From a phage: 64,000 bases of DNA. This document shows, piece after piece, positions 14,432-34,266 of this stretch; within the stretch, counting starts at the first letter, position 1; each line of letters opens with the position of its first letter. Both the position numbers and the translations under genes were made by a program. The stretch lies in sequence record PQ724394.1; one strand, written 5' to 3'. Below the pieces are notes generated by a model. That model was not told the DNA's origin. It saw only the letters and a list, made by a program, of their open reading frames with translations, and searched no databases.

Positions 14432-14439
14432 TATAAATA
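14432..14439 (+). promoter_or_regulatory. T4-type late promoter (TATAAATA) for gene 13
   Basis: Exact TATAAATA about 21 nt upstream of the gene 13 ATG. Confidence 0.6.
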
Positions 14440-14460
14440 CGGTTATTAGAGGAATAAAAC

Positions 14461-15396
14461 ATGGCAAGTGAATCATATAACCCTAAGCAACTCAAGGACG
14501 CTATTCTGCGCCGCCTGGGTGCACCGATTACAAATATTGAAGTAACTACTGACCAAGTGTATGATTGCATCCAGAGGGCCTTAGAGCTCTACGGCGAATA
14601 CCATTATAACGGGTATAACAAAGGTTATCAGGCTTTTTATATCGGCCATGACGATGAAGAAAAATTCCGTAATGGTGTATTCGACCTTAAAGGACGTAAT
14701 ATATTTGCAGTAACACAAATTTTGAGAACTAACGTTGGTTCTTTAACATCTATGGATGGGCAAGCAACTTATCCATGGTTTACAGATTTTGTACTAGGTT
14801 TGGCAGGTATTAATGGTGGCCTTGGGTCTTCATGTAATAGTTTTGGACCTAATGCCTTCGGCGCCGACCTTGGTTATTTCACACAATTAATGCAATATCG
14901 TTCTATGATGCAAGACCTTTTGGTTCCTCTGCCTGATTATTGGTATAATGATGCCACTGAACAATTAAAGGTAATGGGCAACTTTGTTAAAGGCGACTTT
15001 ATTGTAATTGAAGTTTATACCCGTTCATTTAATGGTGTTGATTCCATGGTTGGGAATACAGCAGGATATGGATATGCTTCTGGTGGCTGTGACGAAAATG
15101 AATGGAGCCCTGGGGCTATTTGGGACAATCCTGCACGTCGAATTTCAGGAATGAGAGCTGGTGAGGACCTTGGACTACAAGATGGGGCGTATAATAACCG
15201 TTGGGTCAAAGATTACGCTACAGCATTAGTTAAAGAGGTCAATGGTAATATTTTAGCCAAACACCAAGGTATGCAATTAGCTGGCGGAACCACTGTAGAT
15301 GGCATTCGATTGATTGAAGAAGCTCGTTTAGAAAAAGAACGTCTTCGCGAAGAATTAGATTTGCTCGACCCACCAACACCTATTTTAATTGGATAA
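14461..15396 (+). CDS. 13: neck protein gp13
   Basis: 311 aa (T4 gp13 309 aa); synteny; GAGG ribosome-binding site. Confidence 0.8.
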
Positions 15397-15398
15397 TT

Positions 15399-16172
15399 AT
15401 GGCTACTTTCGATTCGAGTTTATTTGCTAAGCTGGAAAATAACACCGGCTATGCTAACACGAACGAAACTGAAATAATGAACCCTTTCGTCAACTTTTAT
15501 CGCCATGAGAACACTCAAACATTGGCTGATGCTTTAGTTGCTGAGTCTATTCAAATGCGTGGTATCGAGCTTTATTATATACCACGCGAATACGTTAATC
15601 CTGACCAGCTATTTGGCGAAGACCTTCAGAACAAATTTACTAAAGCCTGGAAGTTTGCAGGTTATTTGGATTCCTTTGAAGGTTATTCCGGTGACAATAC
15701 TTATTTCAGTAAGTTCGGTATGATGGTTAATGATGAGGTAACAATCACAATTAACCCTAACCTTTTTAAACATCAATGCAACGGTACTGAACCTGTTTCA
15801 GGTGACTTGATTTATTTCCCTATGGACAATAGTCTATTTGAAATTAACTGGGTTCAACCTTACGACCCATTCTATCAAGTCGGTACAAACGTCCAGCGTC
15901 GCATTACTGCTACCAAGTTCATTTATAATGGTGAGGAACTTCGTCCTGAATTACAGAGAAATGAAGGCATTAATATTCCTGAATTCAGTGAGCTTGATTT
16001 AATGCCTGTTAAAAATATCGACGGGTTGGCTGACATCTCTGATATCCAATATGAAGAGGTTAATGAGATTAATGCTGAAGCAGCGGAATTCGTACACCCT
16101 TATGTAGTGATTAACGGTAGAGGAGAAGATGCTCCTCCTACAGCATTTGATGATGCTTTTTTAGATGATTAA
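15399..16172 (+). CDS. 14: neck protein gp14
   Basis: 257 aa (T4 gp14 256 aa); synteny. Confidence 0.8.
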
Positions 16173-16180
16173 ATAATACA

Positions 16181-16201
16181 TGGCGCATCCCGCGCCATTT
16201 T
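16181..16201 (+). terminator. terminator-like hairpin after gene 14
   Basis: tggcgc-atccc-gcgcca followed by tttt. Confidence 0.5.
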
Positions 16202-16211
16202 AGGAGGTTTG

Positions 16212-17074
16212 ATGTTTGGACATTGGTATAATAGTTCGCTACGTCGCTATATTGTTTTGATGGGTGATTTATTTTCCCATGTTCAAGTAGCACGTCAAAG
16301 AGAAGATACAGGGCTTAAATTTATTAAGGTTCCTATTACGTATGCTTCTAAAGAAAGATTTATGGCTAACTTAGGTAAATGGACGGCAGTACAGAATATC
16401 CCAAATCCTAATATGACGCCAAAAGAAAGAGCTGAACAAAAAGCTAAGGTGGAAACTGTTCTTCCACGTATGAACCTCCAAATGGTTGACATGCTTTATA
16501 ACTCACAATACAAAACAGCTCTTCAAAATAGAACACAAATTCAATTTGAGAATGGGGACCCTCGTAAACGAGTCAGCCAATATTCTCCTACTCCAGTAAA
16601 AATGATTTTTGAACTGGGTATTTACACTAGAACTCAAGATGATATGTTCCAGATTGTGGAACAAATTATGCCGTATTTCCAACCTCACTTTAATACAACA
16701 ATTACCGAACTCTATACAAACGAAATTAAATTTGACCGTGATATTCGTATTGTGTTCCAATCTATAGCAATGGACGAACAATTAGAAGGTGATACCACTT
16801 CACGTCGTCGCTTAGAATGGTCTATGATGTTTGAGGTTAACGGATGGCTATATCCTCCTGTTAAAGAAATGGAAGGCGAAATCAAAACCATTTATCTTGA
16901 TTTCTTTGCCAACTCTAAAGAACTCGCTCCTGAAGGTAATTTTGAATCGGTTGATAGCGAAGTGGTTCCTAGAGGTGTAGAAGAAAAAGAATGGGACGGT
17001 AAGTCCATTCAAACATATTCACAAGATATTCCGGTGCCTGTTGAACCAGAACCTCCAGCACCAAGGAGAAACCC

Positions 17075-17078
<4 letters not shown>
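16212..17078 (+). CDS. 15: tail sheath stabiliser / tail completion protein gp15
   Basis: ATG at 16212 preceded by AGGAGG; N-terminus [13 protein letters not shown] resembles T4 gp15; 288 aa. Confidence 0.8.
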
Positions 17079-19388
<2,310 letters not shown>

Positions 19389-19417
19389 ACAATAAAGCAT
19401 AACCAAGAGGATTCAAA

Positions 19418-21400
19418 ATGGCTTTATTATCACCGGGCATTGAGCTCAAAGAAACGTCCGTACAGAGTACTGTCGTTCGTAACGCAACGGGTCGTGCAGC
19501 GCTGGTTGGTAAATTCCAGTGGGGCCCTGCTTTCCAGGTAACTCAGATTACCAATGAAGTTGAACTGGTTGATTTGTTTGGAGGTCCTAATAACGAAGTA
19601 GCAGATTACTTTATGTCTGGTATGAACTTCCTCCAGTATGGTAATGACCTTCGTACAGTTCGTGTCGTTAGTCGCGAATTTGCTAAAAACGCATCTCCTA
19701 TCGCTGGTAATATTGAAACCACTATTACTACGGCTGGTTCCAACTATGCTGTAGGCGATAAAATTAATATTAAATATAACCAAACTGTAGTCGAATCTGA
19801 AGGTCGTGTGACTTCTGTAGATACAGACGGTAAAATTCTTTCTGTGTTTATTCCGTCAGCAAAAATTATTGCTTACGCACGTTCTTTAAACCAGTATCCT
19901 ACCCTAGGCCCGGCTTGGACTGCTGAAGTTACTTCTGCCTCTTCGGGTGTTTCTGGTACTATTACCGTCGGCCAAATTGTTACCGATTCCGGCATTCTTT
20001 TGACTGAAGCTGAGAATAGTGAAGAAGCTATTACTTCTCTTGAATTCCAAGCGGCCCTTAAGAAATTTGCTATGCCAGGCGTAGTGGCCCTTTATCCTGG
20101 TGAAATTGGTTCTACTCTGGAAGTAGAAATCGTTTCTAAAGCAGCTTATGAAGCCGGTTCTTCTAAAATGTTGGATGTTTATCCTGGTGGTGGTACCCGT
20201 GCTTCTATTGCCAAGGCAGTATTTAATTACGGACCTCAAACAGATGACCAATATGCCATTATCGTTCGTCGCGATGGCGCTATCGTAGAATCAGTCGTAC
20301 TTTCCACCAAAGAAGGTGAAAAAGACGTTTACGGTAATAACATTTATCTTGACGACTATTTCGCTAAAGGTACTTCTAATTACATCTATGCTACCTCGTT
20401 AAACTGGCCGAAAGGATTTAGCGGTATCATTAATCTGTCCGGTGGTATTTCCGCCAACGATAAAGTTACTGCAGGCGATTTGATGCAGGGTTGGGATTTG
20501 TTTGCCGACCGTGAAGCACTCCATATTAACCTGCTTATTGCTGGTGCTGTTGCCGGTGAAGGCGATGAAGTGGCTTCTACTGTTCAGAAACACGTTGTGA
20601 GTATTGCTGATGAACGTCAGGATTGCTTAGCATTTATTTCTCCTCCTAAAGGTCTGTTGGTTAACGTTCCACTTACTCGTGCAGTAGATAACCTTATCGA
20701 CTGGCGTACCGGTGCCGGTAATTTCGATGCCAACAACATGAACATCAGTACCACTTATGCCGCTATTGATGGTAACTATAAATATCAATACGACAAATAT
20801 AACGACGTAAACCGTTGGGTACCACTGGCTGCCGATTTGGCTGGTTTGTGTGCACGTACTGATGATGTGTCTCAGCCTTGGATGTCTCCTGCCGGTTATA
20901 ACCGTGGTCAGATTCTTAACGTTCTGAAATTGGCAATTGAACCACGTCAAGCACAACGTGACCGCATGTACCAGGAAGCTATTAACCCAGTTGTTGGTTT
21001 TGCTGGTGGTGATGGTTTCGTATTGTTTGGTGATAAGACTGCAACTAAAGTTCCATCTCCGATGGACCATATTAACGTTCGCCGTCTGTTCAACATGCTT
21101 AAGAAAAATATAGGTGATGCCTCTAAATATAAACTGTTTGAATTGAACGATAACTTCACTCGTTCAAGCTTCCGTATGGAAGTTTCTCAGTACTTAGATG
21201 GTATTAAGGCACTTGGTGGGATTTATGAAGGACGTGTGGTTTGTGATACTACAGTGAACACCCCTGCGGTTATCGACCGTAATGAGTTTATTGCTAATAT
21301 ATACATCAAACCTGCGAGATCGATAAATTACATCACGTTGAACTTCGTTGCAACGAGCACTGGTGCTGATTTTGATGAATTGATTGGACCTTTAGTATAA
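19418..21400 (+). CDS. 18: tail sheath protein gp18
   Basis: 660 aa (T4 gp18 659 aa); AGAGGA ribosome-binding site; synteny. Confidence 0.9.
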   Translation: MALLSPGIELKETSVQSTVVRNATGRAALVGKFQWGPAFQVTQITNEVELVDLFGGPNNEVADYFMSGMNFLQYGNDLRTVRVVSREFAKNASPIAGNIETTITTAGSNYAVGDKINIKYNQTVVESEGRVTSVDTDGKILSVFIPSAKIIAYARSLNQYPTLGPAWTAEVTSASSGVSGTITVGQIVTDSGILLTEAENSEEAITSLEFQAALKKFAMPGVVALYPGEIGSTLEVEIVSKAAYEAGSSKMLDVYPGGGTRASIAKAVFNYGPQTDDQYAIIVRRDGAIVESVVLSTKEGEKDVYGNNIYLDDYFAKGTSNYIYATSLNWPKGFSGIINLSGGISANDKVTAGDLMQGWDLFADREALHINLLIAGAVAGEGDEVASTVQKHVVSIADERQDCLAFISPPKGLLVNVPLTRAVDNLIDWRTGAGNFDANNMNISTTYAAIDGNYKYQYDKYNDVNRWVPLAADLAGLCARTDDVSQPWMSPAGYNRGQILNVLKLAIEPRQAQRDRMYQEAINPVVGFAGGDGFVLFGDKTATKVPSPMDHINVRRLFNMLKKNIGDASKYKLFELNDNFTRSSFRMEVSQYLDGIKALGGIYEGRVVCDTTVNTPAVIDRNEFIANIYIKPARSINYITLNFVATSTGADFDELIGPLV

Positions 21401-21525
21401 TCTATTATCCCAGGCTGTAATATAAAGAACCTAAAACCATTATACCATGTGTTTGGTTACAGCGTACATCACGTAGAATTGCGCCTGGGAGTGATTAACT
21501 ATCAGGAATATGATTTATCAACTGT

Positions 21526-21533
21526 TATAAATA
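21526..21533 (+). promoter_or_regulatory. T4-type late promoter (TATAAATA) for gene 19
   Basis: Exact TATAAATA in the 173-bp 18-19 intergenic region. Confidence 0.55.
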
Positions 21534-21546
21534 AATTAATCAGAAC

Positions 21547-21567
21547 GTTCCTGGTGTGGCCAGGAAC
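21547..21567 (+). other. 5'-leader hairpin between the late promoter and the gene 19 start
   Basis: Perfect inverted repeat gttcctgg-tgtgg-ccaggaac about 18 nt upstream of the ATG at 21586. Confidence 0.5.
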
Positions 21568-21585
21568 TGACTTATGAGGCATCCC

Positions 21586-22077
21586 ATGGAGTTGACAGAT
21601 ATCACTCGTGCGTTTGAGTCAGGTGACTTTGCACGCCCTAACCTTTTCGAAGTGGAAATTCCATTTCTTGGTAAAAACTTTAGCTTTAAATGTAAAGCAG
21701 CACCTATGCCGGCAGGCATTGTAGAAAAAGTACCGGTTGGCTACATGAACCGTAAAATTAACGTAGCCGGTGACCGTACGTTTGATGATTGGACCATTAC
21801 CATTTATAACGATGATGCCCATGACACCCGTCAGGCAATTGTCGATTGGCAAAACCTCTGCCATGGTATGACCAATGAAATTACCGGTGCTGCACCTGCA
21901 GAATATAAGAAACAAGCAGTAGTTCGTCAGTTCCATCGTGACGGTAAGACTGTGACTAAAGAAGTTACAATTTATGGCTTATGGCCTACTAACGTTGGTG
22001 AAGTCCAGATGGATTGGGATTCAAACAACGAGGTAGAAACTTTCGAATCTACGTTCGCTATCGATTGGTGGGAATGA
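21586..22077 (+). CDS. 19: tail tube protein gp19
   Basis: Start at second ATG (21586) gives 163 aa matching T4 gp19; N-terminal DITRAFESGDFARPNLF matches T4; GAGG ribosome-binding site. Confidence 0.9.
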   Translation: MELTDITRAFESGDFARPNLFEVEIPFLGKNFSFKCKAAPMPAGIVEKVPVGYMNRKINVAGDRTFDDWTITIYNDDAHDTRQAIVDWQNLCHGMTNEITGAAPAEYKKQAVVRQFHRDGKTVTKEVTIYGLWPTNVGEVQMDWDSNNEVETFESTFAIDWWE

Positions 22078-22078
22078 G

Positions 22079-22086
22079 TATAAATA
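22079..22086 (+). promoter_or_regulatory. T4-type late promoter (TATAAATA) for gene 20
   Basis: Exact TATAAATA directly after the gene 19 stop. Confidence 0.55.
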
Positions 22087-22096
22087 GAATTATAAA

Positions 22097-22110
22097 GGAG
22101 CTTCGGCTCC
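22097..22110 (+). other. UUCG-tetraloop hairpin in the 19-20 intergenic region
   Basis: ggagc-ttcg-gctcc; likely partial terminator or RNA stability element downstream of the highly expressed gene 19. Confidence 0.5.
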
Positions 22111-22134
22111 TTATCCCATTCATCGGAGACTCTA

Positions 22135-23709
22135 ATGGCAAACTTTAATACAATATTAAGTTTTCTTAAGCCATGGGCTAATGAAGACGAAAAAGAATAT
22201 AAACAACAATTAAATAACAATTTAGAGTCTGTCACTGCACCTAAGCTTGATGATGGCGCTCGCGAAATTGAAACCCAAGAGCAAAATATTCCTTATAACG
22301 CTCTTATGCAACAAATGTTTGGTAGTAATGAGCCTGAAGTTAAAAACACCAGGGAACTCATTGATACCTACCGTAATTTGATGAACAACTATGAAGTCGA
22401 TAACGCAGTTCAAGAAATTGTGTCTGACGCTATTGTCTACGAGGATGATAAAGAAGTAGTTGCATTAAATTTAGACGGGACAGATTTCAGTCAATCAATT
22501 AAAGATAAAATTTTGGCTGAATTTAGTGAAGTTTTGAATCTTTTAAATTTCCAACGTAAAGGCACCGACCATTTCCAACGTTGGTATGTAGACTCGAGAA
22601 TATTCTTTCATAAAATTATAAACCCTAAAAAAATGAAAGATGGTATACAAGAGCTCCGTCGTTTAGACCCTCGCCAACTCCAATATATCCGTGAAATTGT
22701 TACACGTATGGAAGATGGTGTTAAAATTGTAGATGGATACCGCGAGTTTTTCGTTTACGATACTGGTCATGAAAGTTATTGTGCTGATGGACGCATTTAT
22801 TCAGCTGGGACTAAAGTTAAAATTCCTCGTGCTGCTGTAGTTTATGCACATTCTGGGTTATTGGATTGTTGTGGTAAAAACATCATTGGCTATTTGCAAC
22901 GTGCTATTAAGCCTGCAAACCAGCTTAAATTGATGGAAGATGCAATGGTCATCTATCGTATTACCCGTGCTCCTGACCGTCGTGTATTTTATATCGATAC
23001 AGGAAATATGCCTTCTCGTAAGGCTGCAGCACAAATGCAACATATCATGAACACGATGAAAAACCGTGTGGTATATGATGCTTCGACCGGTAAAATTAAA
23101 AACCAGCAACATAATATGTCAATGACCGAAGACTATTGGTTGCAACGTCGAGACGGTAAAGCGGTAACAGAAGTTGATACCATGCCTGGAGCCACAGGTA
23201 TGAGTGATATGGATGACGTTCTTTATTTCCGCACAGCACTTTATCGTGCGCTGCGTATCCCAGAGTCGCGCATCCCTAGTGAATCTAATTCCGGTGTTAT
23301 GTTTGATGCTGGTACGGCTATAACTCGTGATGAGTTGAAATTTGCTAAATGGATTCGACAGCTCCAAAATAAATTTGAAGAAATTTTCTTAGACCCATTA
23401 AAAACAAACCTCATTCTTAAAAAGATTATTACAGAAGATGAGTGGGAAAGAGAAATAAATAATATTAAAGTTACGTTCAACCGTGATAGCTATTTCAGTG
23501 AAATGAAAGATGCGGAAATCATGGAACGCAGAATCAATATGCTAACGATGGCTGAACCATTTATTGGTAAGTATATTTCACATCAAACGGCTATGAAAGA
23601 TTTCCTTCAGATGACTGACGAAGAAATTAATCAAGAAGCTAAGCAAATTGAAGAAGAGTCTAAAGAGGCTCGTTTCCAAAACCCAGATGAAGAAGAAGAG
23701 GATTTCTAA
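22135..23709 (+). CDS. 20: portal vertex protein gp20
   Basis: 524 aa, same as T4 gp20; synteny. Confidence 0.9.
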
Positions 23710-23984
23710 TGGAAGATTTAATCGAAGCTATTAAATCAAACGACCTCGTAGCAGTTCGTAAAGCAGCAGCCCCGCTTATCGAATCTCGAGTAGCCGCTTT
23801 GATTGAAGCCCGTAAAGCAGAAATTGCTCGCTCCGTTATGATTGAAGGCGAAGAAGCCGACGAAGATGACGAAGACGAAGATAAAGACGAAAAATCCGAT
23901 AAAGCAGATAAGAAAGACAAAAAAGAATCTGACGATGCGGATGAAGGTGATGACGGCGATGATGAAGACGAGGACGACGAATAA
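23709..23984 (+). CDS. 67: prohead core protein gp67 (acidic)
   Basis: 91 aa with strongly acidic C-terminus; position between 20 and 68; ATGA-type overlap. Confidence 0.7.
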
Positions 23985-24412
23985 TGTTCCTTATCCCTGA
24001 TGATTACGAATTAACTCTAGAAAGCGTAGAGGCCAAAATTCCAGAAGCACAGGGACGTTTTGCTACTCTTTCTGAAGCCCTCGAGAAAAGCGATATAAAT
24101 AATCTTGTAGAGAACATGATTGCTGATGGTGATATCGATACCGCTATTGCCATCGCCTCTTTGAATGAAAATATGGCTCTTAACGAATTTATCGTTAAGC
24201 ACGTCTCTTCTAAAGGTGAGCTTACTCGTACTAAAGATATTAAAACCCGTCAACGCAACGCTTATCAAACGACCGGGTTGTCTAAAGCAAAACGCCGTCA
24301 GATTGCTCGCAAAGCATCTAAAACCAAACGTGCTAATCCATCTATTCAAGTACGTGCCGAACGTAAGCGTAAGAAAGCTCGTTCTAAACGTAAAGCCTTT
24401 GGACTTAACTAA
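23984..24412 (+). CDS. 68: prohead core protein gp68
   Basis: 142 aa (T4 gp68 141 aa); synteny. Confidence 0.7.
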
Positions 24413-25047
24413 TGAAACCTGAATTGCTCATCGAACATTGGGGACAACCAGGTGAAATTATCGATGGGGTTCCGATGTTGGAATCTCATGATGGAAAAGA
24501 TTCTGGACTTGCCCCAGGCCTTTATATAGAAGGCATATTCATGCAAGCCGAAGTGGTTAACCGTAATAAACGCCTTTATCCGAAACCTATTTTGGAAAAA
24601 GCTGTTGCTGATTATATGGCAGAACAGGTTGCTACTAAACAAGCTTTAGGAGAATTAAATCATCCGCCTCGTGCTAACGTCGACCCTATGCAAGCCGCTA
24701 TTATTATTGAAGATATGTGGTGGAAAGGTAATGACGTTTATGGACGTGCTCGTATTATTGAAGGCGACCATGGTCCTGGTGATAAACTAGCTGCTAATAT
24801 TAGAGCCGGTTGGGTGCCTGGTGTTAGTTCTCGTGGTCTAGGTTCTTTAACCGAAACCAATAAAGGATATAAGCGTGTAAACGAAGGTTATAAATTAACC
24901 GTCGGTGTTGATGCAGTATGGGGTCCATCTGCTCCTGATGCTTATGTAACTCCTAAACAAATTACAGAATCACAAACGGTAGATACCGATACCAGTGCCG
25001 ATGACGCCTTTATGGCTCTCGCAGAGGCCATGAAAAAAGCGTTATAA
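24412..25047 (+). CDS. 21: prohead core protease gp21
   Basis: 211 aa (T4 gp21 212 aa); synteny directly upstream of scaffold and capsid genes. Confidence 0.85.
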   Translation: MKPELLIEHWGQPGEIIDGVPMLESHDGKDSGLAPGLYIEGIFMQAEVVNRNKRLYPKPILEKAVADYMAEQVATKQALGELNHPPRANVDPMQAAIIIEDMWWKGNDVYGRARIIEGDHGPGDKLAANIRAGWVPGVSSRGLGSLTETNKGYKRVNEGYKLTVGVDAVWGPSAPDAYVTPKQITESQTVDTDTSADDAFMALAEAMKKAL

Positions 25048-25050
25048 ATA
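25043..25050 (+). promoter_or_regulatory. T4-type late promoter (TATAAATA) for gene 22
   Basis: Exact TATAAATA overlapping the gene 21 stop, about 28 nt upstream of the gene 22 ATG. Confidence 0.6.
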
Positions 25051-25077
25051 TTATTATCTAAACAACAGGACTACAAA

Positions 25078-25893
25078 ATGCTTAAAGAACAACTGATCGC
25101 CGAAGCACAGAATATTGATGCTTCCGTTGCTCTTGACAGTATTTTCGAATCAGTTAATATTTCTCCGGAAGCAAAAGAAACTTTCGGCACTGTATTCGAA
25201 GCTACCGTCAAGCAACATGCCGTTAAACTGGCTGAATCTCACATCGCTAAAATCGCTGAAAAAGCGGAAGAAGAAGTTGAGAAAAATAAAGAAGAAGCTG
25301 AAGAAAAAGCTGATAAGAAAATCCAAGAAGCTGCCGGTCGTTTCCTTGACCATGTTGCTAAAGAATGGATGGCTGAAAACCAGCTGGCTGTTGATAAAGG
25401 TATTAAAGCCGAACTGTTCGAATCCATGTTGATGGGTATGAAAGAACTGTTTGTTGAACATAACGTGGTTGTTCCAGAAGAAGCAGTAGACGTTGTCGCT
25501 GAAATGGAAGAAGAATTGGCTGAACAGAAAGCTGAAACCGCTCGTTTGTTCGAAGAAGTTGGCAAGCGTGACGCATATATTAATTACGTACAGCGTGAAC
25601 AAGCTGTTATGGAAGCAACTAAAGACCTGACTGAATCTCAGAAAGAAAAAGTTAGTTCTCTGGTAGAAGGCATGGATTATTCCGATGCATTTGGTAAAAA
25701 AATTGGCGCTATCGTTGAAATGGTTAAAGGCCAGACTGACGTTGAAAAACCAATCACCGAAGCCGCTATAAATAAAACTGAAGACGATGCTGCAGCACTG
25801 AATTACATTTCGGAAGCAGTTGAAGAAAAAGGCGCTAAGCCTACCCTGTCCTTCGCGGACCTGTCTGCAATCGCAGCATCTCGAATTTCTTAA
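25078..25893 (+). CDS. 22: prohead scaffolding core protein gp22
   Basis: 271 aa, Glu/Lys/Ala-rich coiled-coil; T4 gp22 269 aa; synteny. Confidence 0.85.
   Translation: MLKEQLIAEAQNIDASVALDSIFESVNISPEAKETFGTVFEATVKQHAVKLAESHIAKIAEKAEEEVEKNKEEAEEKADKKIQEAAGRFLDHVAKEWMAENQLAVDKGIKAELFESMLMGMKELFVEHNVVVPEEAVDVVAEMEEELAEQKAETARLFEEVGKRDAYINYVQREQAVMEATKDLTESQKEKVSSLVEGMDYSDAFGKKIGAIVEMVKGQTDVEKPITEAAINKTEDDAAALNYISEAVEEKGAKPTLSFADLSAIAASRIS
25767..25774 (+). promoter_or_regulatory. candidate late promoter for gene 23 located inside the 3' end of gene 22
   Basis: Exact TATAAATA about 140 nt upstream of the gene 23 ATG; no TATAAATA in the short 22-23 intergenic spacer. Confidence 0.35.
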
Positions 25894-25914
25894 TTTAATA
25901 AGGTTATACAACAC

Positions 25915-27474
25915 ATGAAAAAGAATGCATTAGTTCAAAAATGGTCCGCTCTGCTGGAAAACGAAGCTCTTCCTGAAATCGTTGGTGCTTCTAAACAAGC
26001 TATCATCGCTAAAATTTTCGAAAACCAGGAACAAGACATCCTGACTGCTCCGGAATACCGTGACGAAAAAATCTCTGAAGCATTTGGTTCTTTCCTGACC
26101 GAAGCTGAAATCGGTGGTGACCATGGTTATGATGCTACCAATATTGCAGCGGGCCAGACCTCTGGTGCTGTAACTCAGATTGGGCCGGCAGTAATGGGTA
26201 TGGTTCGTCGTGCTATTCCTCATCTGATTGCTTTTGATATTTGTGGTGTTCAGCCTCTGAATAACCCTACCGGCCAGGTATTTGCACTGCGTGCAGTATA
26301 TGGTAAAGACCCTATCGCTGCAGGCGCTAAAGAAGCTTTCCATCCGATGTATGCTCCGAATGCTATGTTCTCTGGTCAGGGCGCTGCTCAGACTTTTGAA
26401 GCACTGGCTGCAGGTAAAGTTCTGGAAGTTGGTAAAATTTATTCTCACTTCTTCGAATCTACCGGTTCTGCACACTTCCAGGCTGTTGAAGCCGTAACCG
26501 TTGATGCTGCTGCTACCGATGCTGCTAAACTGGATGTTGCCGTAACTGCTCTGTTGGAAGCTGGCCAGCTGGCTGAATTGGCTGAAGGTATGGCTACTTC
26601 TATCGCTGAACTTCAGGAAGGCTTTAACGGTTCTCAGGACAACCCGTGGAACGAAATGGGCTTCCGTATCGATAAACAAGTTATCGAAGCTAAATCCCGT
26701 CAGCTGAAAGCAAGCTATTCCATCGAACTGGCACAGGACCTTCGTGCAGTACACGGTATGGATGCAGATGCTGAACTGTCCGGTATCCTTGCTACCGAAA
26801 TTATGCTCGAAATCAACCGTGAAGTTATCGATTGGATTAACTACTCTGCACAGGTTGGTAAATCTGGTATGACCAACACCGTTGGCGCTAAAGCTGGTGT
26901 GTTTGACTTCCAGGACCCGATTGATATCCGTGGTGCTCGTTGGGCCGGTGAGAGCTTTAAAGCCCTTCTGTTCCAGATTGATAAAGAAGCAGCCGAAATC
27001 GCTCGTCAGACCGGTCGTGGTGCTGGTAACTTCATCATCGCTTCCCGTAACGTAGTTAACGTACTGGCTGCAGTTGATACTTCTGTAAGTTATGCAGCTC
27101 AAGGTCTGGGTCAGGGTTTCAACGTTGACACAACCAAAGCAGTATTTGCCGGTGTTCTTGGTGGTAAATATCGTGTTTACATCGACCAGTATGCTCGTTC
27201 CGATTACTTCACCATCGGTTATAAAGGTTCCAACGAAATGGACGCAGGTATCTACTATGCTCCGTACGTTGCACTGACTCCGCTGCGTGGTTCCGATCCG
27301 AAGAACTTCCAACCGGTAATGGGCTTCAAAACTCGTTACGGTATCGGTATTAACCCGTTCGCTGACCCAGCTGCTCAGGCACCTACCAAACGTATTCAGA
27401 ATGGTATGCCGGACATCGTTAACAGCCTTGGTCTGAATGGTTACTTTAGACGTGTATATGTGAAAGGTATCTAA
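25915..27474 (+). CDS. 23: major capsid protein gp23
   Basis: 519 aa (T4 gp23 521 aa); strongly biased codon usage and Ala/Gly-rich sequence typical of a highly expressed capsid protein; synteny. Confidence 0.95.
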   Translation: MKKNALVQKWSALLENEALPEIVGASKQAIIAKIFENQEQDILTAPEYRDEKISEAFGSFLTEAEIGGDHGYDATNIAAGQTSGAVTQIGPAVMGMVRRAIPHLIAFDICGVQPLNNPTGQVFALRAVYGKDPIAAGAKEAFHPMYAPNAMFSGQGAAQTFEALAAGKVLEVGKIYSHFFESTGSAHFQAVEAVTVDAAATDAAKLDVAVTALLEAGQLAELAEGMATSIAELQEGFNGSQDNPWNEMGFRIDKQVIEAKSRQLKASYSIELAQDLRAVHGMDADAELSGILATEIMLEINREVIDWINYSAQVGKSGMTNTVGAKAGVFDFQDPIDIRGARWAGESFKALLFQIDKEAAEIARQTGRGAGNFIIASRNVVNVLAAVDTSVSYAAQGLGQGFNVDTTKAVFAGVLGGKYRVYIDQYARSDYFTIGYKGSNEMDAGIYYAPYVALTPLRGSDPKNFQPVMGFKTRYGIGINPFADPAAQAPTKRIQNGMPDIVNSLGLNGYFRRVYVKGI

Positions 27475-27490
27475 GACCTAACCTTATTAT

Positions 27491-27520
27491 GGGAGACTTC
27501 GGTCTCCCATTCTTGTTTCT
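27491..27520 (+). terminator. terminator hairpin after gene 23
   Basis: gggagac-ttcg-gtctccc followed by a T-rich tail. Confidence 0.65.
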
Positions 27521-27523
27521 GTA

Positions 27524-27790
27524 CTATGCAATCTTAACTCGACGGTTGATGATATCACGGAAGTCAATACGATTTTCTTGGATTTTAAGCCAGTTACCAG
27601 ATTTGTCTTTGGTATGGGTAGAATATTCGCCGTTCCACCAGAAGTCGGTTTCATAAGCCAGAGCTTCGTATTTCTTAACCAATGCATTAACTGCATTACC
27701 GTTAGGATTGGAACCATATTTTTCTACCAGAGCTTTGATGTCTTTGTCAAGGTTAGAAAGCGTGGTACGGATAAAGTTTAATTTGTTCAT
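27524..27790 (-). CDS. hypothetical small protein (88 aa) at the 23/24 junction
   Basis: Minus-strand ORF; internal ATG at 27790 preceded by AGGAGA; own sigma70-like promoter upstream. Confidence 0.5.
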   Translation of the reverse strand: MNKLNFIRTTLSNLDKDIKALVEKYGSNPNGNAVNALVKKYEALAYETDFWWNGEYSTHTKDKSGNWLKIQENRIDFRDIINRRVKIA

Positions 27791-27819
27791 TTTTAATCTC
27801 CTCATGTTTTGATAGGACT

Positions 27820-27849
27820 ATAGTAACACGTGGGAACCTTGCTGTAAAC
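27820..27849 (-). promoter_or_regulatory. sigma70-like early promoter candidate (GTTTAC-N18-TACTAT)
   Basis: Minus strand: GTTTAC (27849-27844), 18-nt spacer, TACTAT (27825-27820); same architecture recurs at 31845-31874 and 46843-46872. Confidence 0.45.
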
Positions 27850-27855
27850 AACTTT

Positions 27856-27863
27856 TATAAATA
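27856..27863 (+). promoter_or_regulatory. T4-type late promoter (TATAAATA) for gene 24
   Basis: Exact TATAAATA about 29 nt upstream of the gene 24 ATG. Confidence 0.6.
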
Positions 27864-27891: not shown

Positions 27892-29175
27892 ATGGCAAAG
27901 ATTAACGAATTACTGCGCGAGTCAACAACTACTACCAGCAACTCATTGGGTCGCCCTAATCTTGTTGCTTTGACCCGTGCTACCACTAAACTAATTTATC
28001 GCGATATCATCGCTGAACAACGTACTAGTCAGCCTATTGCTGCATTGTATGGTGTCAAATATCTTACCCCTGATAATGAATTTAGTTTCCAAACTGGTGC
28101 TGTTTATGGTGGTGAAGTTGGTTCTAAAGACCGTGAAACTATCCCAGAACTCACAGATAAAGCCCAGGCGATTGCCAAGGGTGACTACTTTAAGTATCAG
28201 AATGTGGTTTATAAGGCTCTTCAAGCAAGCCCACTCGCATCCACTAGCGCTACAGAATTGGCTGATGCTCTTCAAGAAGGTTTGGTGTCATTAACGTGTC
28301 GTTTGGTTCCTGATGCGGCGCATACCACTAAATTCGAAGCGAGTGATGTAGAAATCTCTGATGCTGTATTCCAGGTTAATAAATGGAATGCTCCTGTTAA
28401 GACCCGTAAATTGAAGACTGCTTTGACCGTAGAATTAGCACAGGATATGGAATCAAATGGCTTTGACGCCCCTGCGTTCTTAGAAGACCTCCTGGCTACG
28501 GTAATGGCAGATGAAATTAATAAAGACGTTCTACAATCTCTAATAACCGTATCTAAACGCTATAAAGTTACGGGCGTATCTGATAATGGTATTATTGATT
28601 TGACTTATGATAGTGCTCCGGAATCTGCACGTAAACTTTATGAAATTGTGTGTGAGATGAATTCTGAAATCCAGAAAACTACTTCTTATTCTGGTACGTT
28701 TGTTGTGGCTTCAAGTCGTGTGGCTGCAATGCTTGCAGGTTCTGGCTGGTTAAAACATAGACCTGAAGATAATAATTGGCTCCCGGAAACTGCCTATGGT
28801 TATTTGTTGAATGGATTACCTCTGTTCTGTGACGTTAACAGCCCATTGGATTATGTTATCGTAGGTGTTAAAGAGAATTATGGCGGAAATGAAGTCGTAG
28901 GCTCAATTTTCTATGCCCCGTATACAGAAGGCTTGGATTTAGACGACCCAGAACACGTCGGTGCTTATAAGGTTATTGTCGACCCGGATTCATTACAGCC
29001 TTCTATTTCTCTGATGGTTCGTTATGCACTGTCCGCTAACCCGTACACCGTAGCTAAAGACGATAAAGAAGCTCGTGTTATCGATGCAACCAATATGGAT
29101 TTAATGGCTGGTCAGAGTAATATGTCCTATCTGCTCGGTGTTAAACTTCCAGCAATTATTTACGAGGCTGATTAA
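27892..29175 (+). CDS. 24: capsid vertex protein gp24 (copy 1, T4-orthologous)
   Basis: 427 aa, same as T4 gp24; N-terminus MAKINELLRESTTT as in T4 gp24. Confidence 0.85.
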   Translation: MAKINELLRESTTTTSNSLGRPNLVALTRATTKLIYRDIIAEQRTSQPIAALYGVKYLTPDNEFSFQTGAVYGGEVGSKDRETIPELTDKAQAIAKGDYFKYQNVVYKALQASPLASTSATELADALQEGLVSLTCRLVPDAAHTTKFEASDVEISDAVFQVNKWNAPVKTRKLKTALTVELAQDMESNGFDAPAFLEDLLATVMADEINKDVLQSLITVSKRYKVTGVSDNGIIDLTYDSAPESARKLYEIVCEMNSEIQKTTSYSGTFVVASSRVAAMLAGSGWLKHRPEDNNWLPETAYGYLLNGLPLFCDVNSPLDYVIVGVKENYGGNEVVGSIFYAPYTEGLDLDDPEHVGAYKVIVDPDSLQPSISLMVRYALSANPYTVAKDDKEARVIDATNMDLMAGQSNMSYLLGVKLPAIIYEAD

Positions 29176-30455
29176 TGTCTAAGATTATAGACCTAATTAA
29201 AGAATCCACATTGACGGCTGCCAACTCGGTTGGCCGTCCTGCTCTTCTTTCATACACCCAAGCAACTAATAAACGAATCTTTAAAGCCCTAGTTGCTGAA
29301 CAAAAAACAAGCCAACCTGTTGCCGCTCTGTACGGGGTTCGTGTACTTAATCCTGACGACAAAATGACTTATCTTGGTGGCGCTACATTTGCAGGCCAGA
29401 TTGGTATGTCGGAACGTGAAAATATTCCTGAATTTACCGATTCGTCTACAGCTTATGCAGCCGGCGATATGTTCCAGTTTGAAAGTGTAGTGTTTAAAGT
29501 TCTAGAAGCATCTCCTTTCGCCGGAACCACAGAAACCGACCTAGGTGAAGTTATTTCTGAAGCAGTGGCAGCCGGACATATTCGTATGGTATCAGATGCT
29601 GCTATTACTTCTAAATTCGAACAAGGTCATCCCGAAATTGCTGAAGCAGGCTTCCGTATTGACAAATGGCAATCTGAAGTTAAATCACGTAAACTGAAAA
29701 CTTCATTGACAGTCGAATTAGCCCAAGACCTAGAATCAAACGGGTTTAATGCTCCTAATTTCATTGAAAATCTGCTAGGCATTCAAATGGCAGAAGAAAT
29801 TAATAAGGACGTATTACAGTCATTAATTACGGTGAGTTCTCGTTTTAAAGTCCAGGGTGTTTCTGAAAAGGGTGTATTAGACCTTACCAACCCACGTTAC
29901 GATAATGCCCAGGACCGTGCTCGTACATTATATTATTACATGTGTGAGATGAACTCTGCCGTCCAACGTCAAACTTCTTTCGCTGGGACTTATGCAGTAG
30001 CTAGTTCTCGTTGTGCTGCTATTCTCGCCGCTTCCGGTTGGGTTGAGAAAAAGGAAGACCAAGACGAACTGGCTTATGGTGTATTAAAGAATGGTCTGCC
30101 TCTTTATGCCGATATGAATAGTCCGTGTGATTATGTTATTGTTGGTGTAAATGCTCAGATGGGTGAAGGACAGACGGTCGCATCTTTATATTATGCGCCT
30201 TATACGGAAGGTTTGGATGTGGTTGATGAAGAAGGTGATACTTCAGTAGGTGAATTTAAGGTTATTGTTGACCCGGAAAGCTTACAACCTACAGTAGCAT
30301 TGCTTGCTCGTTATGCATTGACTGCAAACCCTTATACCGTCGCTAAGGACGATAAAGAAGCCCGCATTATTGATGGTTCTGATATGGACAAAATGGCTAA
30401 CCAAAGCCAGTTGAGTTCTTATCTTGGTGTTAAACTTCCACCTTTAGAAAAATAA
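29175..30455 (+). CDS. capsid vertex protein gp24 paralogue (copy 2, divergent)
   Basis: 426 aa, collinear with copy 1 at roughly 55-60 percent identity by eye; TAATG overlap with copy 1 stop. Confidence 0.8.
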   Translation: MSKIIDLIKESTLTAANSVGRPALLSYTQATNKRIFKALVAEQKTSQPVAALYGVRVLNPDDKMTYLGGATFAGQIGMSERENIPEFTDSSTAYAAGDMFQFESVVFKVLEASPFAGTTETDLGEVISEAVAAGHIRMVSDAAITSKFEQGHPEIAEAGFRIDKWQSEVKSRKLKTSLTVELAQDLESNGFNAPNFIENLLGIQMAEEINKDVLQSLITVSSRFKVQGVSEKGVLDLTNPRYDNAQDRARTLYYYMCEMNSAVQRQTSFAGTYAVASSRCAAILAASGWVEKKEDQDELAYGVLKNGLPLYADMNSPCDYVIVGVNAQMGEGQTVASLYYAPYTEGLDVVDEEGDTSVGEFKVIVDPESLQPTVALLARYALTANPYTVAKDDKEARIIDGSDMDKMANQSQLSSYLGVKLPPLEK

Positions 30456-31884: not shown

Positions 31885-33390
31885 ATGTCAGACAATCCAT
31901 TATACGGGCATGACGGTAGAGGTCACTTTAGAGGCGTATCATTAGTAGAAGTTCCGCAGGATAAATCATTGGAATTTGCAGACATACTCACTAGTGAAAG
32001 CACCTTAGACCCTACTATGTTGGATTCTTCTCAAAGTTATGGACTTGAATTTATAAAACAAGCTTCTAGGGAAGGCGCGTTGGCCCATTTAGGTATAACT
32101 AATGAGATGCTAACACCTGGTACTGAAGGTCCACAAGGCCCTAAAGGAGACCCAGGGCCGCAAGGTATTCAAGGTAACCCGGGTCCTAAAGGAGAAAAGG
32201 GCGAACCAGGACCAGCAGGTCCAGAAGGTCCTAAAGGAGACCCGGGTTCACCAGGAAAAGAAGGCCCTCAGGGTTTACAAGGGGCCCAAGGAGAAGTAGG
32301 ACCGCAAGGACCACAAGGTCCTATAGGCCCAGCAGGTTTGGTGTGGAAGGGAGCCTGGGATGAATCTACCCAATACTCTAAAGACGATGCAGTTGGATAC
32401 CAGGGAGCTTCTTATTTTTGCATCAGTTCTAATACAGGAACAATACCTCCTAGCGAAGGAGTTTGGGCGCTATTGGCTAATATCGGTGCACCAGGTCCTC
32501 AAGGACCAACCGGCCCAACCGGCCCTCAAGGTCCACAAGGCGCGCCAGGCCAAGATGGTAATGGGTTTATCTGGGCCGGAAACTGGGCCCTTGGTTCGTC
32601 TTATTATATAAACGATTTGGTCCAGTGCGAAGGGTCTTCTTGGATTTGTATCCAGGATAATATAGCAAATAATGATAGTTATCCCGGGAGTGGAGACCTG
32701 TGGGCCGATTATTGGAATTTATTTGTAAAAGAAGGGCGTCCAGGAAATCCCGGAGAAGATGGTGCACCTGGAGAGCAAGGCGCCCAAGGACCGCAAGGCG
32801 ACCCGGGTCCTAAAGGTGAAAAGGGCGAACCTGGGCCACAAGGTATTCAAGGTCCTATAGGGCCCGCAGGTGCTCCTGGTAAAGATGCAGTATTTGATGT
32901 TGATTCTTTAACCCAGTCTCAATTAAAATCTTTATATGATAAACTTTTCCCATTCTATCCACCTAGATATTGGAAAGGCTCTTTAAGATTTGATAAGCCT
33001 CTGAACACTTCAGAGTGGAAGGAAATACGTTTATGGGACCTTAATATGGTTCTTCATGTTCGTATGTATTCGTCTTTAGGCATCCATATAAGGGCTACTA
33101 ATGCGGGTCTTACCAACAGACTTGATATTAAAAGATTTACCAACTATGAAAACGGGATAGAATGCGCCAACTGGAGTAATGTTCTGTGGTCCTCAACTCC
33201 TGAATTATTCGACGATTTGGCTTATTCTAGTGCAAGACAATTTAACCGTTACGAAATATTTGACCGTGATACTAGAAAATACTACACTGTATCTGTGTTT
33301 ATTGTAGGCGGCCCTCTTAATACGACTACAGATATCCCTGTTGAAGTTTTATTTTCTGTCGAAGACCATACTAATATGAGCCCATTTTAA
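31885..33390 (+). CDS. collagen-like repeat protein with two tail-fibre-type W/Y/C-rich modules and a globular C-terminal domain
   Basis: 501 aa; three Gly-X-Y runs (about 24, 9 and 17 triplets) separated by two ~45-aa modules ([30 protein letters not shown] and [30 protein letters not shown]); GGAG ribosome-binding site. Confidence 0.75.
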
Positions 33391-33399
33391 GGAGGTCGA

Positions 33400-34266
33400 A
33401 TGATTACACTTAAAATAAATGGTCCTAGATATGAATTAGTTGGAAGAACTGTAACCTTTTATACCGGGTTTGTATTACCGCCCGGTTCTACTCTAGACGA
33501 TGTAGAAATTAATTGGTATAAAAACGATGTCCATATTCCACAACTTCCTACCGAGGACCCTTTTGAATTAAATTTGTGGGAAGTAGGATTCCCTGCTGCC
33601 GGAACATTTTATGCGACTATAACAAATAAGAAAAGTGGAGAAATAACTAAGAGTAATGAAATAGAACTTGAAATAGGTACCCTTCCAAGAAGGGTTATTT
33701 TAGATATAAATTCAAGACGATTAATATACGCTAATATAGGAGAAACTGTTGCACTTAGGCCATCATGTAGAGTAGAGCCTTCTTATGCGGAAAGGGTTTG
33801 TAGATGGTACAGAGACGGAGTCGAATTATCTAAAGATGAAGATATCGATATATTAATAGACAACTCTAGTAAATTCGGGGAGTATACATTAAAATCTATA
33901 GGAACTTGTGAAGGAGCATATATCCCTGCTTCTGAAGAACTTTTAGTTGAAATAAAACCTAGGGATGATGTATTGCAGTGCCCTTTCATATATGATAACG
34001 ACCTTAATGCTTATTTACCATATGGCGGTGGAAGAAATGAATCGTATATGTGGATAGGTTGGTGGGTATGGGACGAAATAAGAGAAGCCGTTAGATTGGG
34101 AGAAGATTGGACTTTGGATATAAACAACAGCCCATACAAGTATAAATGTGAGTTACAAAAAGTAGCCGACCTTTTGTCTAAGTATCCTGAAGTAGAGATA
34201 CAAGAGTCGAGAAATGGCTACATCTTAGAAAGGAAGGACTTAGTTTACGTCCCTCCTGAAAAATAA
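33400..34266 (+). CDS. Hoc-like protein 2: Ig-like N-terminal region plus conserved Hoc-type C-terminal module
   Basis: 288 aa; AAGGAGG ribosome-binding site 10 nt after the collagen-like gene stop; C-terminal ~70 aa (YMWIGWWVWDEI...YPEVEIQESRNGYILER) matches the C-terminus of the 470-aa Hoc at 34540-35952. Confidence 0.65.
   Translation: MITLKINGPRYELVGRTVTFYTGFVLPPGSTLDDVEINWYKNDVHIPQLPTEDPFELNLWEVGFPAAGTFYATITNKKSGEITKSNEIELEIGTLPRRVILDINSRRLIYANIGETVALRPSCRVEPSYAERVCRWYRDGVELSKDEDIDILIDNSSKFGEYTLKSIGTCEGAYIPASEELLVEIKPRDDVLQCPFIYDNDLNAYLPYGGGRNESYMWIGWWVWDEIREAVRLGEDWTLDINNSPYKYKCELQKVADLLSKYPEVEIQESRNGYILERKDLVYVPPEK

Follow-up and report, generated by a model that had tools for sequence, protein, structure and literature searches.

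The 64,000-nucleotide stretch of phage DNA analysed here (sequence record PQ724394.1; hereafter the window) carries two genes for capsid vertex proteins of the T4 gp24 type, 24a and 24b. Both genes are intact and full-length, and they lie head to tail. The 24a/24b pair is already known as an annotation in related phages, so that its finding in this phage adds no new kind of system; published and annotated accounts end at "duplication", without a function. We favour, with moderate confidence, the reading that 24a and 24b would be two non-redundant capsid vertex (penton) subunits, co-made late and forming separate pentamers. This reading draws on features established for the pair: the homology and intactness of both genes, the selection acting on them, their co-expression signals and co-inheritance, and where the fixed differences lie. 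New here are the age and monophyly of the 24b clade, the strict downstream position of its members, the conserved coupling of the two genes and the clade-fixed replacements near an inter-subunit contact.

The two open reading frames (ORFs) are on the + strand and begin with ATG (27892..29175, 427 aa, and 29175..30455, 426 aa, in the ORF list of the window). The TAA stop codon of 24a at 29173-29175 and the ATG of 24b at 29175-29177 have one base in common, giving TAATG. The products aligned collinearly end to end by BLASTP, with 242 identities in 428 positions (57%), 77% positives, 10 gap positions and E = 0. Both matched PF07068, the Gp23 family, over almost their full length (E 3e-98 for 24a, 3e-97 for 24b), and both matched PHROG 138 (phrog_138). 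Against T4 gp24 (PDB 1YUE), 24a aligned over residues 1-424 at E 3.8e-200 and 24b over residues 1-423 at E 4.2e-152; the matches to T4 gp23 were at about 1e-10 and 1e-11, respectively. Amino acid identity to T4 gp24 was 70-71% for 24a and 57-58% for 24b. Both proteins are homologous to gp24 over their full length and nearer to it than to gp23, and the genes occupy the position expected of the family, in the head-gene cluster just after gene 23 with a late-promoter motif present. Every sequence criterion tested places 24a in the T4 gp24 family, and 24b belongs to the same family within a distinct, old sub-clade. A preliminary description of the window had reported head-to-tail gp24-type genes of 427 and 426 aa with a TAATG overlap, and here coordinates, sequence, BLASTP and 1YUE matches agree. 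The same description had the first copy close to T4 gp24 and the second collinear yet clearly diverged; the identities bear this out, as does the placement of 24a in the T4 clade.

Strong purifying selection acts on both copies, and neither is decaying. The ratio of nonsynonymous to synonymous divergence (dN/dS, Nei-Gojobori) between orthologues was 0.02-0.075 for 24a and 0.02-0.077 for 24b in comparisons with unsaturated dS. Between the paralogues dS was saturated, and there was therefore no sign of gene conversion between 24a and 24b. Across the same 18 genomes mean pairwise identity was 0.759 for downstream copies versus 0.717 for upstream copies. Downstream copies were less conserved than upstream ones in the propeptide (0.58 versus 0.86) and in residues 11-30, the N-terminal arm (0.67 versus 0.80). 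No disabling mutation of the kind raised by the preliminary description was seen in either copy: dN/dS was 0.02-0.08 for both, and most family-invariant residues were kept. This invariant set comprised 103 columns without variation in 28 single-copy proteins, of which 24a kept 101 and 24b kept 90.

Among the 13 invariant positions changed in 24b, six carried one fixed residue in all 24 members of its clade and seven varied within the clade. The pattern points to a functional shift rather than decay. In T4 numbering, the replacements fixed in 24/24 clade members, the window copy included, were T32N, L34R, Y36F, K56R, Y57V and E335Q. The clade also showed Q or K in place of R29, and I in place of T204 in 22 of 24 members. 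Canonical residues at the 24b-specific sites were retained by 19/19 upstream copies. The loop at 348-359 held an acidic insertion of 3-8 residues across the clade, 3 of them in the window 24b. Apart from E335Q, the replacements cluster at residues 29-57, on the N-terminal arm and where the insertion-domain linker begins. Membership of the window gene in the 24b-type ("vertex protein II") clade was evident from monophyly, downstream position and the residues N32, R34, F36, R56, V57 and Q335.

An (L/I)-x-E|S motif at residue 10 was found in both proteins (MAKINELLRE|S in 24a, MSKIIDLIKE|S in 24b), and the x-E-S context was present in all copies, including 24/24 of the 24b clade. The prohead protease gp21 cuts T4 gp24 at this site, and its cleavage after Glu10 is predicted for both 24a and 24b. 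The predicted mature products are nearly equal, at 45.5 kDa for 24a and 45.2 kDa for 24b, each with an isoelectric point (pI) of 4.65. In the T4 vertex protein gp24*, ten residues have been removed from the N-terminus, residues 11-20 contact the adjacent gp23* hexamer after expansion, and linker 1 of the insertion domain starts around residue 60 (PMC9546572). Within one pentamer, residues 26-29 of a gp24* pair in parallel beta fashion with the insertion-domain linker of the subunit beside it (PMC9546572). Given this contact geometry in T4, the fixed 24b changes at residues 29-57 would therefore adjoin both partners of the intra-pentamer contact. An HK97 fold with an insertion domain is expected for 24b from its 57% identity to the solved T4 protein. 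An AlphaFold2 model of 24b built on a 33-sequence alignment was too poor for mapping substitutions (mean predicted local distance difference test score, pLDDT, 51; predicted template modelling score, pTM, 0.48).

The layout of the locus suggests that the two genes are expressed as one unit. The features of the region are as follows.

27489..27510, + strand: terminator-like hairpin after gene 23, with a 9-bp stem, 5 G-C pairs and a T-rich tail
27856..27863, + strand: T4-type late promoter motif TATAAATA, 28 nt 5' of the 24a start codon
27881..27884, + strand: Shine-Dalgarno-like AGGA for 24a, putative, from sequence
27892..29175, + strand: gene 24a, canonical capsid vertex protein, T4 gp24 counterpart, 427 aa
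29164..29167, + strand: Shine-Dalgarno-like GAGG for 24b, within the 3' end of 24a, putative, from sequence
29173..29177, + strand: TAATG stop/start overlap of 24a and 24b, read in the sequence
29175..30455, + strand: gene 24b, diverged second vertex-protein paralogue, 426 aa
30455..30476, both strands: bidirectional terminator-like hairpin between 24b (+) and the convergent rnlB (-), with a 9-bp stem, 5 G-C pairs and T-rich tails

The gene order is 68-21-22-23-(small minus-strand ORF)-24a-24b-rnlB. Gene 23 ends at 27474, and the hairpin at 27489-27510 parts the end of its transcript from the 24a-24b unit. The motif TATAAATA, which by analogy with established T4 biology would act as a late promoter, preceded the first copy by 26-29 nt in 10 of the 11 loci compared, including that of the T4-type phage RB27. 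In 12/12 tandem loci it was missing over the final 400 nt of the upstream copy, and a scan of the window found neither a late-promoter motif nor a terminator between 24a and 24b. As read from these signals, 24b appears to be obligately co-transcribed with 24a, because there is a single upstream motif, no motif or terminator between the genes, and one hairpin after 24b. Intergenic spacing ranged from -4 to +1 nt over the 12 tandem loci compared, and translation of 24b is probably coupled to that of 24a. The coupled arrangement is as old as the pair itself. RNA structure at the 24a/24b junction was no more stable than that of shuffled sequence (z = -0.10).

Over this region the window shared 97-98% DNA identity with Escherichia phage JS10 and with "phage Ec2-ASingh", and 86% with JS98. 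Judged by its identity to JS10, the window is a JS10-like Dhakavirus (Straboviridae, Tevenvirinae). The two phages share gene order and overlap over this region (97% DNA identity), and the window copies are orthologous to both members of the JS10 pair; a minor difference is that the window 24b is one residue shorter, ending in ...PPLEK where JS10 has ...PPLDKN. The genes are labelled "24a" and "24b, gp24 head vertex protein" in the GenBank records of JS10, JS98 and IME08, "capsid vertex protein I/II" in those of VR5 and VR20, and "head vertex protein I/II" in that of Salmonella phage CGG4-1. The genome announcement of phage Melville describes the pair in S16 and Melville as a tandem duplication of the capsid vertex protein (PMC6486254). 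The annotated pairs of JS98, JS10, VR5, S16 and Melville are the same feature as the pair in the window. In the accessible literature the Melville announcement was the only paper found to mention the duplication, and no paper giving the second copy a function was found.

The distribution of the pair was assessed with a query of 401 nt across the 24a/24b junction, with contiguous coverage required. The tandem junction was present in 118 phage records from Dhakavirus, Gaprivervirus, Gelderlandvirus (S16-like Salmonella phages) and Klebsiella F48/BM7-like phages. By tblastn with either protein as query, gp24 homologues were present in about 1,417 records, and the roughly 120 additional places were consistent with the two-copy set. 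Roughly one in twelve gp24-bearing phage records (118/1,417) thus has a second, strongly conserved vertex paralogue that is absent from T4. Phage records at least 80% identical numbered 92 for 24a and 92 for 24b. In a collection of 5.8 billion proteins, 24b-type proteins were found down to 67% identity, including one from Erwinia phage FBB1. The 24b clade spans Dhakavirus, Gaprivervirus, Gelderlandvirus, the Klebsiella F48/BM7-like phages, Erwinia phage FBB1 and several metagenomic lineages. The order gene 23, canonical gene 24, 24b-type gene was seen in 15/15 lineages (7 annotated genomes and 8 metagenomic loci). No 24b-type gene without a canonical copy was found in the 15 loci opened, the phage records or the large protein collection.

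Neighbour-joining trees with bootstrap were built from 28 and from 74 sequences, and thirds of the protein were also treed separately. The 24b clade had a bootstrap of 100 for the whole protein and 99-100 in each third. A canonical crown clade (bootstrap 100) united every upstream copy with the single-copy proteins from T4-type phages, RB69, CC31, Moon and others, and 24b fell outside it. Within this frame 24a grouped with the gp24 of T4, RB69, CC31 and Moon to the exclusion of 24b (bootstrap 99-100). Identity of 24b was 55-58% to all canonical Tevenvirinae gp24 and 64% to Jiaodavirus gp24. Site patterns pairing 24a with canonical proteins and 24b with outgroups occurred in 11 columns, versus 2 columns for the reverse, and private changes numbered 34 in 24b and 12 in 24a. 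The trees robustly indicate that the split between 24a-type and 24b-type genes is older than the separation of the Dhakavirus and T4 lineages. The preliminary description had spoken of a tandem duplication: the two gp24-type genes do stand in tandem, but the duplication is neither recent nor peculiar to this genome. A recent lineage-specific duplication was rejected, as 24a is nearer to T4-type gp24 (70-71%) than to 24b (57%), 24a and 24b were sisters in 0% of bootstrap replicates, and the old 24b clade is shared among phages.

The two copies have largely been inherited together. In 18 genomes the pairwise distances of upstream and downstream copies were correlated (Spearman 0.84), the distance between paralogues within a genome was near-constant (0.62-0.74), and the branching orders within the upstream and downstream clades were largely mirrored. 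The exceptions were contigs c20182 and c80268, in which the upstream copies grouped with single-copy lineages (bootstrap 87 and 73) and the downstream copies grouped together (97). As the upstream and downstream copies of these two contigs group differently, there has therefore been some allele exchange at the gene 24 locus. In these two metagenomic contigs (L027 58-2603 and L028 4724-7278), the upstream copies went with PEi20/PM2 (87) and with the T4/Moon/Karamvirus group (73), and the downstream copies clustered with three other contigs (97).

The deep attachment of 24b had 10-15% support for any placement when the whole protein was used. The regional signals conflict: in the C-terminal third 24b fell with the crown clade (74%), and in the middle third it leaned to Jiaodavirus, Tegunavirus and Acinetobacter-phage proteins (40%). 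Either 24b was lost in T4, RB69 and other single-copy lineages, or it moved between lineages. A backbone tree of the C-terminal 199 residues of gp23 was poorly resolved, with the two-copy phages not monophyletic, and left loss versus transfer undecided. The single Jiaodavirus gp24 (Klebsiella phage TU02, L011 1501-2781; P0022-P0024) looked intermediate or mosaic: residues 1-60 and 301-427 had mean identities of 81% and 74% to canonical proteins versus 60% and 64% to 24b, and residues 231-300 had 66% to 24b versus 56% to canonical proteins. Recombination between the two types of gene could account for this pattern, as could ancestral states that were retained.

In the mechanism that we propose, 24a and 24b would both be non-interchangeable vertex subunits, made late and processed by the protease. 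With its interface region altered yet frozen, 24b would prefer another 24b as its neighbour; preferential self-assembly of 24b is expected because its changes adjoin both contact partners. Both proteins would be incorporated into virions and assemble homotypically, and the two kinds of homopentamer would be partitioned among the 11 non-portal vertices of the prolate head, with coupled expression supplying roughly comparable amounts of product. The suggestion of specialised or mixed vertices in the preliminary description is plausible. A candidate property added by 24b vertices is stability against pH, osmotic shock or proteases, which is proposed because mutations in T4 gene 24 affect these. 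gp24 is important for capsid stability (PMC10580926), and "os" is given as a T4 synonym of gene 24 in the RB69 record. A more specific version, in which the distinct homopentamers would occupy different vertex classes (the five portal-proximal vertices versus the distal cap, or one special vertex), is tentative and rather unlikely.

Several points weigh against two non-interchangeable pentons. All 55 gp24* subunits of T4 share essentially one conformation (PMC9546572), and prolate geometry alone therefore needs no two penton types. About 1,300 of the 1,417 records of T4-like phages have one gp24. The accessible literature holds no virion proteomics, cryo-electron microscopy or genetics on any two-copy phage, and the PDB relatives of 24a and 24b are T4 gp24 structures only. 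The near-equal mature size and charge predict that the 24a and 24b products would not be separable on gels. The suggestion of homopentamers also comes from substitution positions read through the published description of T4, not from a model of 24b.

Other accounts of what the second copy does fit some of the same observations. If the subunits were interchangeable, they would be incorporated at random, mixed pentamers included, and the pair would be kept for robustness or heterogeneity. The fold-defining residues and cleavage motif kept in both copies, co-expression from one coupled unit, the near-identical mature size and pI and the structural equivalence of all T4 vertices are consistent with this. 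We nevertheless consider it unlikely: the replacements fixed in 24/24 clade members at residues 29-57 adjoin the contact between N-terminal arm and insertion-domain linker and suggest a changed interface, and loss or homogenisation would be the expected fate of interchangeable copies, whereas paralogue distance was constant and dS saturated. Alternatively, only 24a might enter mature vertices, with 24b having an assembly-phase or non-virion role, for instance by joining the prohead transiently or by regulating head assembly. The observation that 24b was never seen without a canonical copy would agree with such a role, as would the low conservation of its propeptide (0.58 versus 0.86) and N-terminal arm (0.67 versus 0.80), its least conserved parts. 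This account is quite improbable, since 24b keeps the full gp24 architecture (insertion domain, both linkers, conserved C-terminus and 90/103 invariant residues), shows slightly higher overall conservation than the upstream copy across the same genomes, and retains the cleavage motif typical of prohead-processed head proteins. Simple dosage duplication, or a redundant spare, would suit the tandem arrangement and co-expression. Dosage duplications are typically near-identical and unstable; here the copies are only 57% identical with saturated synonymous divergence, each has dN/dS of about 0.05 and fixed residues of its own, and four or more genera, together with lineages further removed, have kept the pair. 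We give this explanation almost no credence, as the pattern of divergence and conservation effectively refutes it. Scarcely more plausible is a role for 24b as an anti-defence decoy or escape variant against immune systems that sense the vertex protein. In phage T6 the vertex-protein change A380V escapes type IV Thoeris, so that gp24 can be needed for triggering; wild-type vertex protein restored immunity against the T6 escaper (PMC13243611), which makes it a dominant trigger that an extra copy would not hide. Ala380 is kept in both 24a and 24b, and a Thoeris-type decoy or escape function for 24b was rejected on these two grounds. Escape genes also usually turn over fast, whereas 24b is old and strongly conserved.

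A further alternative concerns origin. 24b could have been acquired laterally from a diverged T4-like lineage, placed beside gene 24 by homologous recombination and spread later. It is not sister to 24a (0% of bootstrap replicates), its deep position lacks firm support, and site patterns run 11 to 2 in favour of pairing 24a with canonical proteins and 24b with outgroups. Exchange at the locus is seen in c20182 and c80268, and Jiaodavirus gp24 looks intermediate or mosaic. On the other hand, no possible donor, a phage or contig bearing a 24b-type gene without a canonical one, was found, both copies have the same GC content (42.1%), and the copies co-diverge overall (Spearman 0.84). The C-terminal third moreover puts 24b with the crown clade (74), as expected of an old within-lineage duplication. 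We regard lateral acquisition as possible, if doubtful.

T4 gp24 (1YUE; capsids 5VF3, 7VS5 and 8GMO) is the closest characterised counterpart of both proteins. It resembles them in length, in its slot after gene 23 and before the convergent rnlB, in the distance of the late promoter, in the x-E|S context at residue 10 and in aligning end to end with 24a and 24b, and it falls in the same clade as 24a (bootstrap 100). T4 has one gene where the window has two, the second being 57-58% identical to T4 gp24, and canonical gp24 is invariant at the sites where 24b has N32, R34, F36, R56, V57, Q335 and the acidic loop insertion. A second parallel is the paralogy of gp23 and gp24 in T4, in which duplicated HK97-fold capsid genes each have a distinct lattice position, hexamer or pentamer. 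gp24 was derived from gp23 by duplication (PMC10580926, PMC3012670), and the gp23, 24a and 24b of the window all match PF07068. gp23 and gp24 differ from the present pair in being about 21% identical, with some 90 extra residues in gp23, whereas 24a and 24b are 57% identical and of the same length; any positional specialisation of 24a and 24b would be far subtler. In T4 bypass-24 mutants, gp23 pentamers replace gp24, so that the vertex tolerates alternative HK97-fold subunits and its composition alters stability (PMC10580926, PMC3012670). These are laboratory mutants in which one subunit type does both jobs, not a natural, conserved system with two vertex genes.

T4 is the reference for large prolate capsids, and its single gp24 is usually taken as the general case. 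If 24a and 24b are two dedicated penton proteins, this would be the first such tailed-phage capsid; to our knowledge none has been shown to use two. A corollary would be that the single gp24 of T4, RB69 and relatives reflects secondary loss from a two-penton ancestor. Heads with both proteins in the particle would have two kinds of corner, which would bear on vertex specification during assembly and on particle stability in the gut. The two-copy set includes relatives of therapeutic and biocontrol candidates (JS98/JS10 and the S16 group). The near-equal predicted mass and charge of mature 24a and 24b are also relevant to capsid engineering and to the reading of virion proteomes.

The window contained 15 exact TATAAATA motifs, against a chance expectation of 7.5, and 10 of the 15 lay on the + strand within 14432-27863, a span of 13.4 kb that includes head structural genes. 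Between gene 23 and 24a, a minus-strand ORF of 93 aa (27524-27805) had no Pfam match and is labelled "hypothetical" in JS10, JS98, VR5 and VR20; the same slot holds a SegD homing endonuclease in CGG4-1 and IME08.

Beyond rnlB, which together with two small minus-strand genes parts them from 24b, the window carries a collagen-like and a Hoc-like gene. The collagen-like ORF (31885-33390, + strand, 501 aa) has collagen triple-helix repeats (PF01391, E 8.6e-24) and two interspersed CBM_5_12 carbohydrate-binding modules. Its N-terminal region of about 75 residues was found in 26 phage records only, labelled "tail fiber protein" or hypothetical, with holders including JS10, CGG4-1, Erwinia phages FBB1 and Cronus, Aeromonas phage 65 and Pseudomonas phage PspYZU05. 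Its C-terminal domain is variable and was present in 15 records; the JS10 allele is shorter, at 335 aa, and 39% identical. A link between 24b and the collagen-like and Hoc-like ORFs (31885-34266) was considered and rejected, as some of the 26 records with the N-terminal domain (Aeromonas phage 65 and Pseudomonas phage PspYZU05) fall outside the tandem-junction set. VR20, a two-copy phage, likewise lacked the domain in the sequence available beyond 24b. In FBB1-like two-copy contigs, collagen-like and short Hoc-like genes lie directly 3' of 24b on the same strand, with the homologues at the following positions.

L021 4890-6427
L023 5326-6841
L025 2676-4506
L026 2634-4140

The Hoc-like ORF of the window (33400-34266, + strand, 288 aa) had a weak Ig_2 match. 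Its C-terminal 75 residues or so resemble the capsid-binding domain of Hoc in many T4-like phages and contain the ESRNG motif. This motif is highlighted in PMC10385173. Second Hoc-like proteins have been described before, in phages Muldoon and PG7. The JS10 record labels both the Hoc-like gene and a second gene of 469 aa on the opposite strand "hoc".

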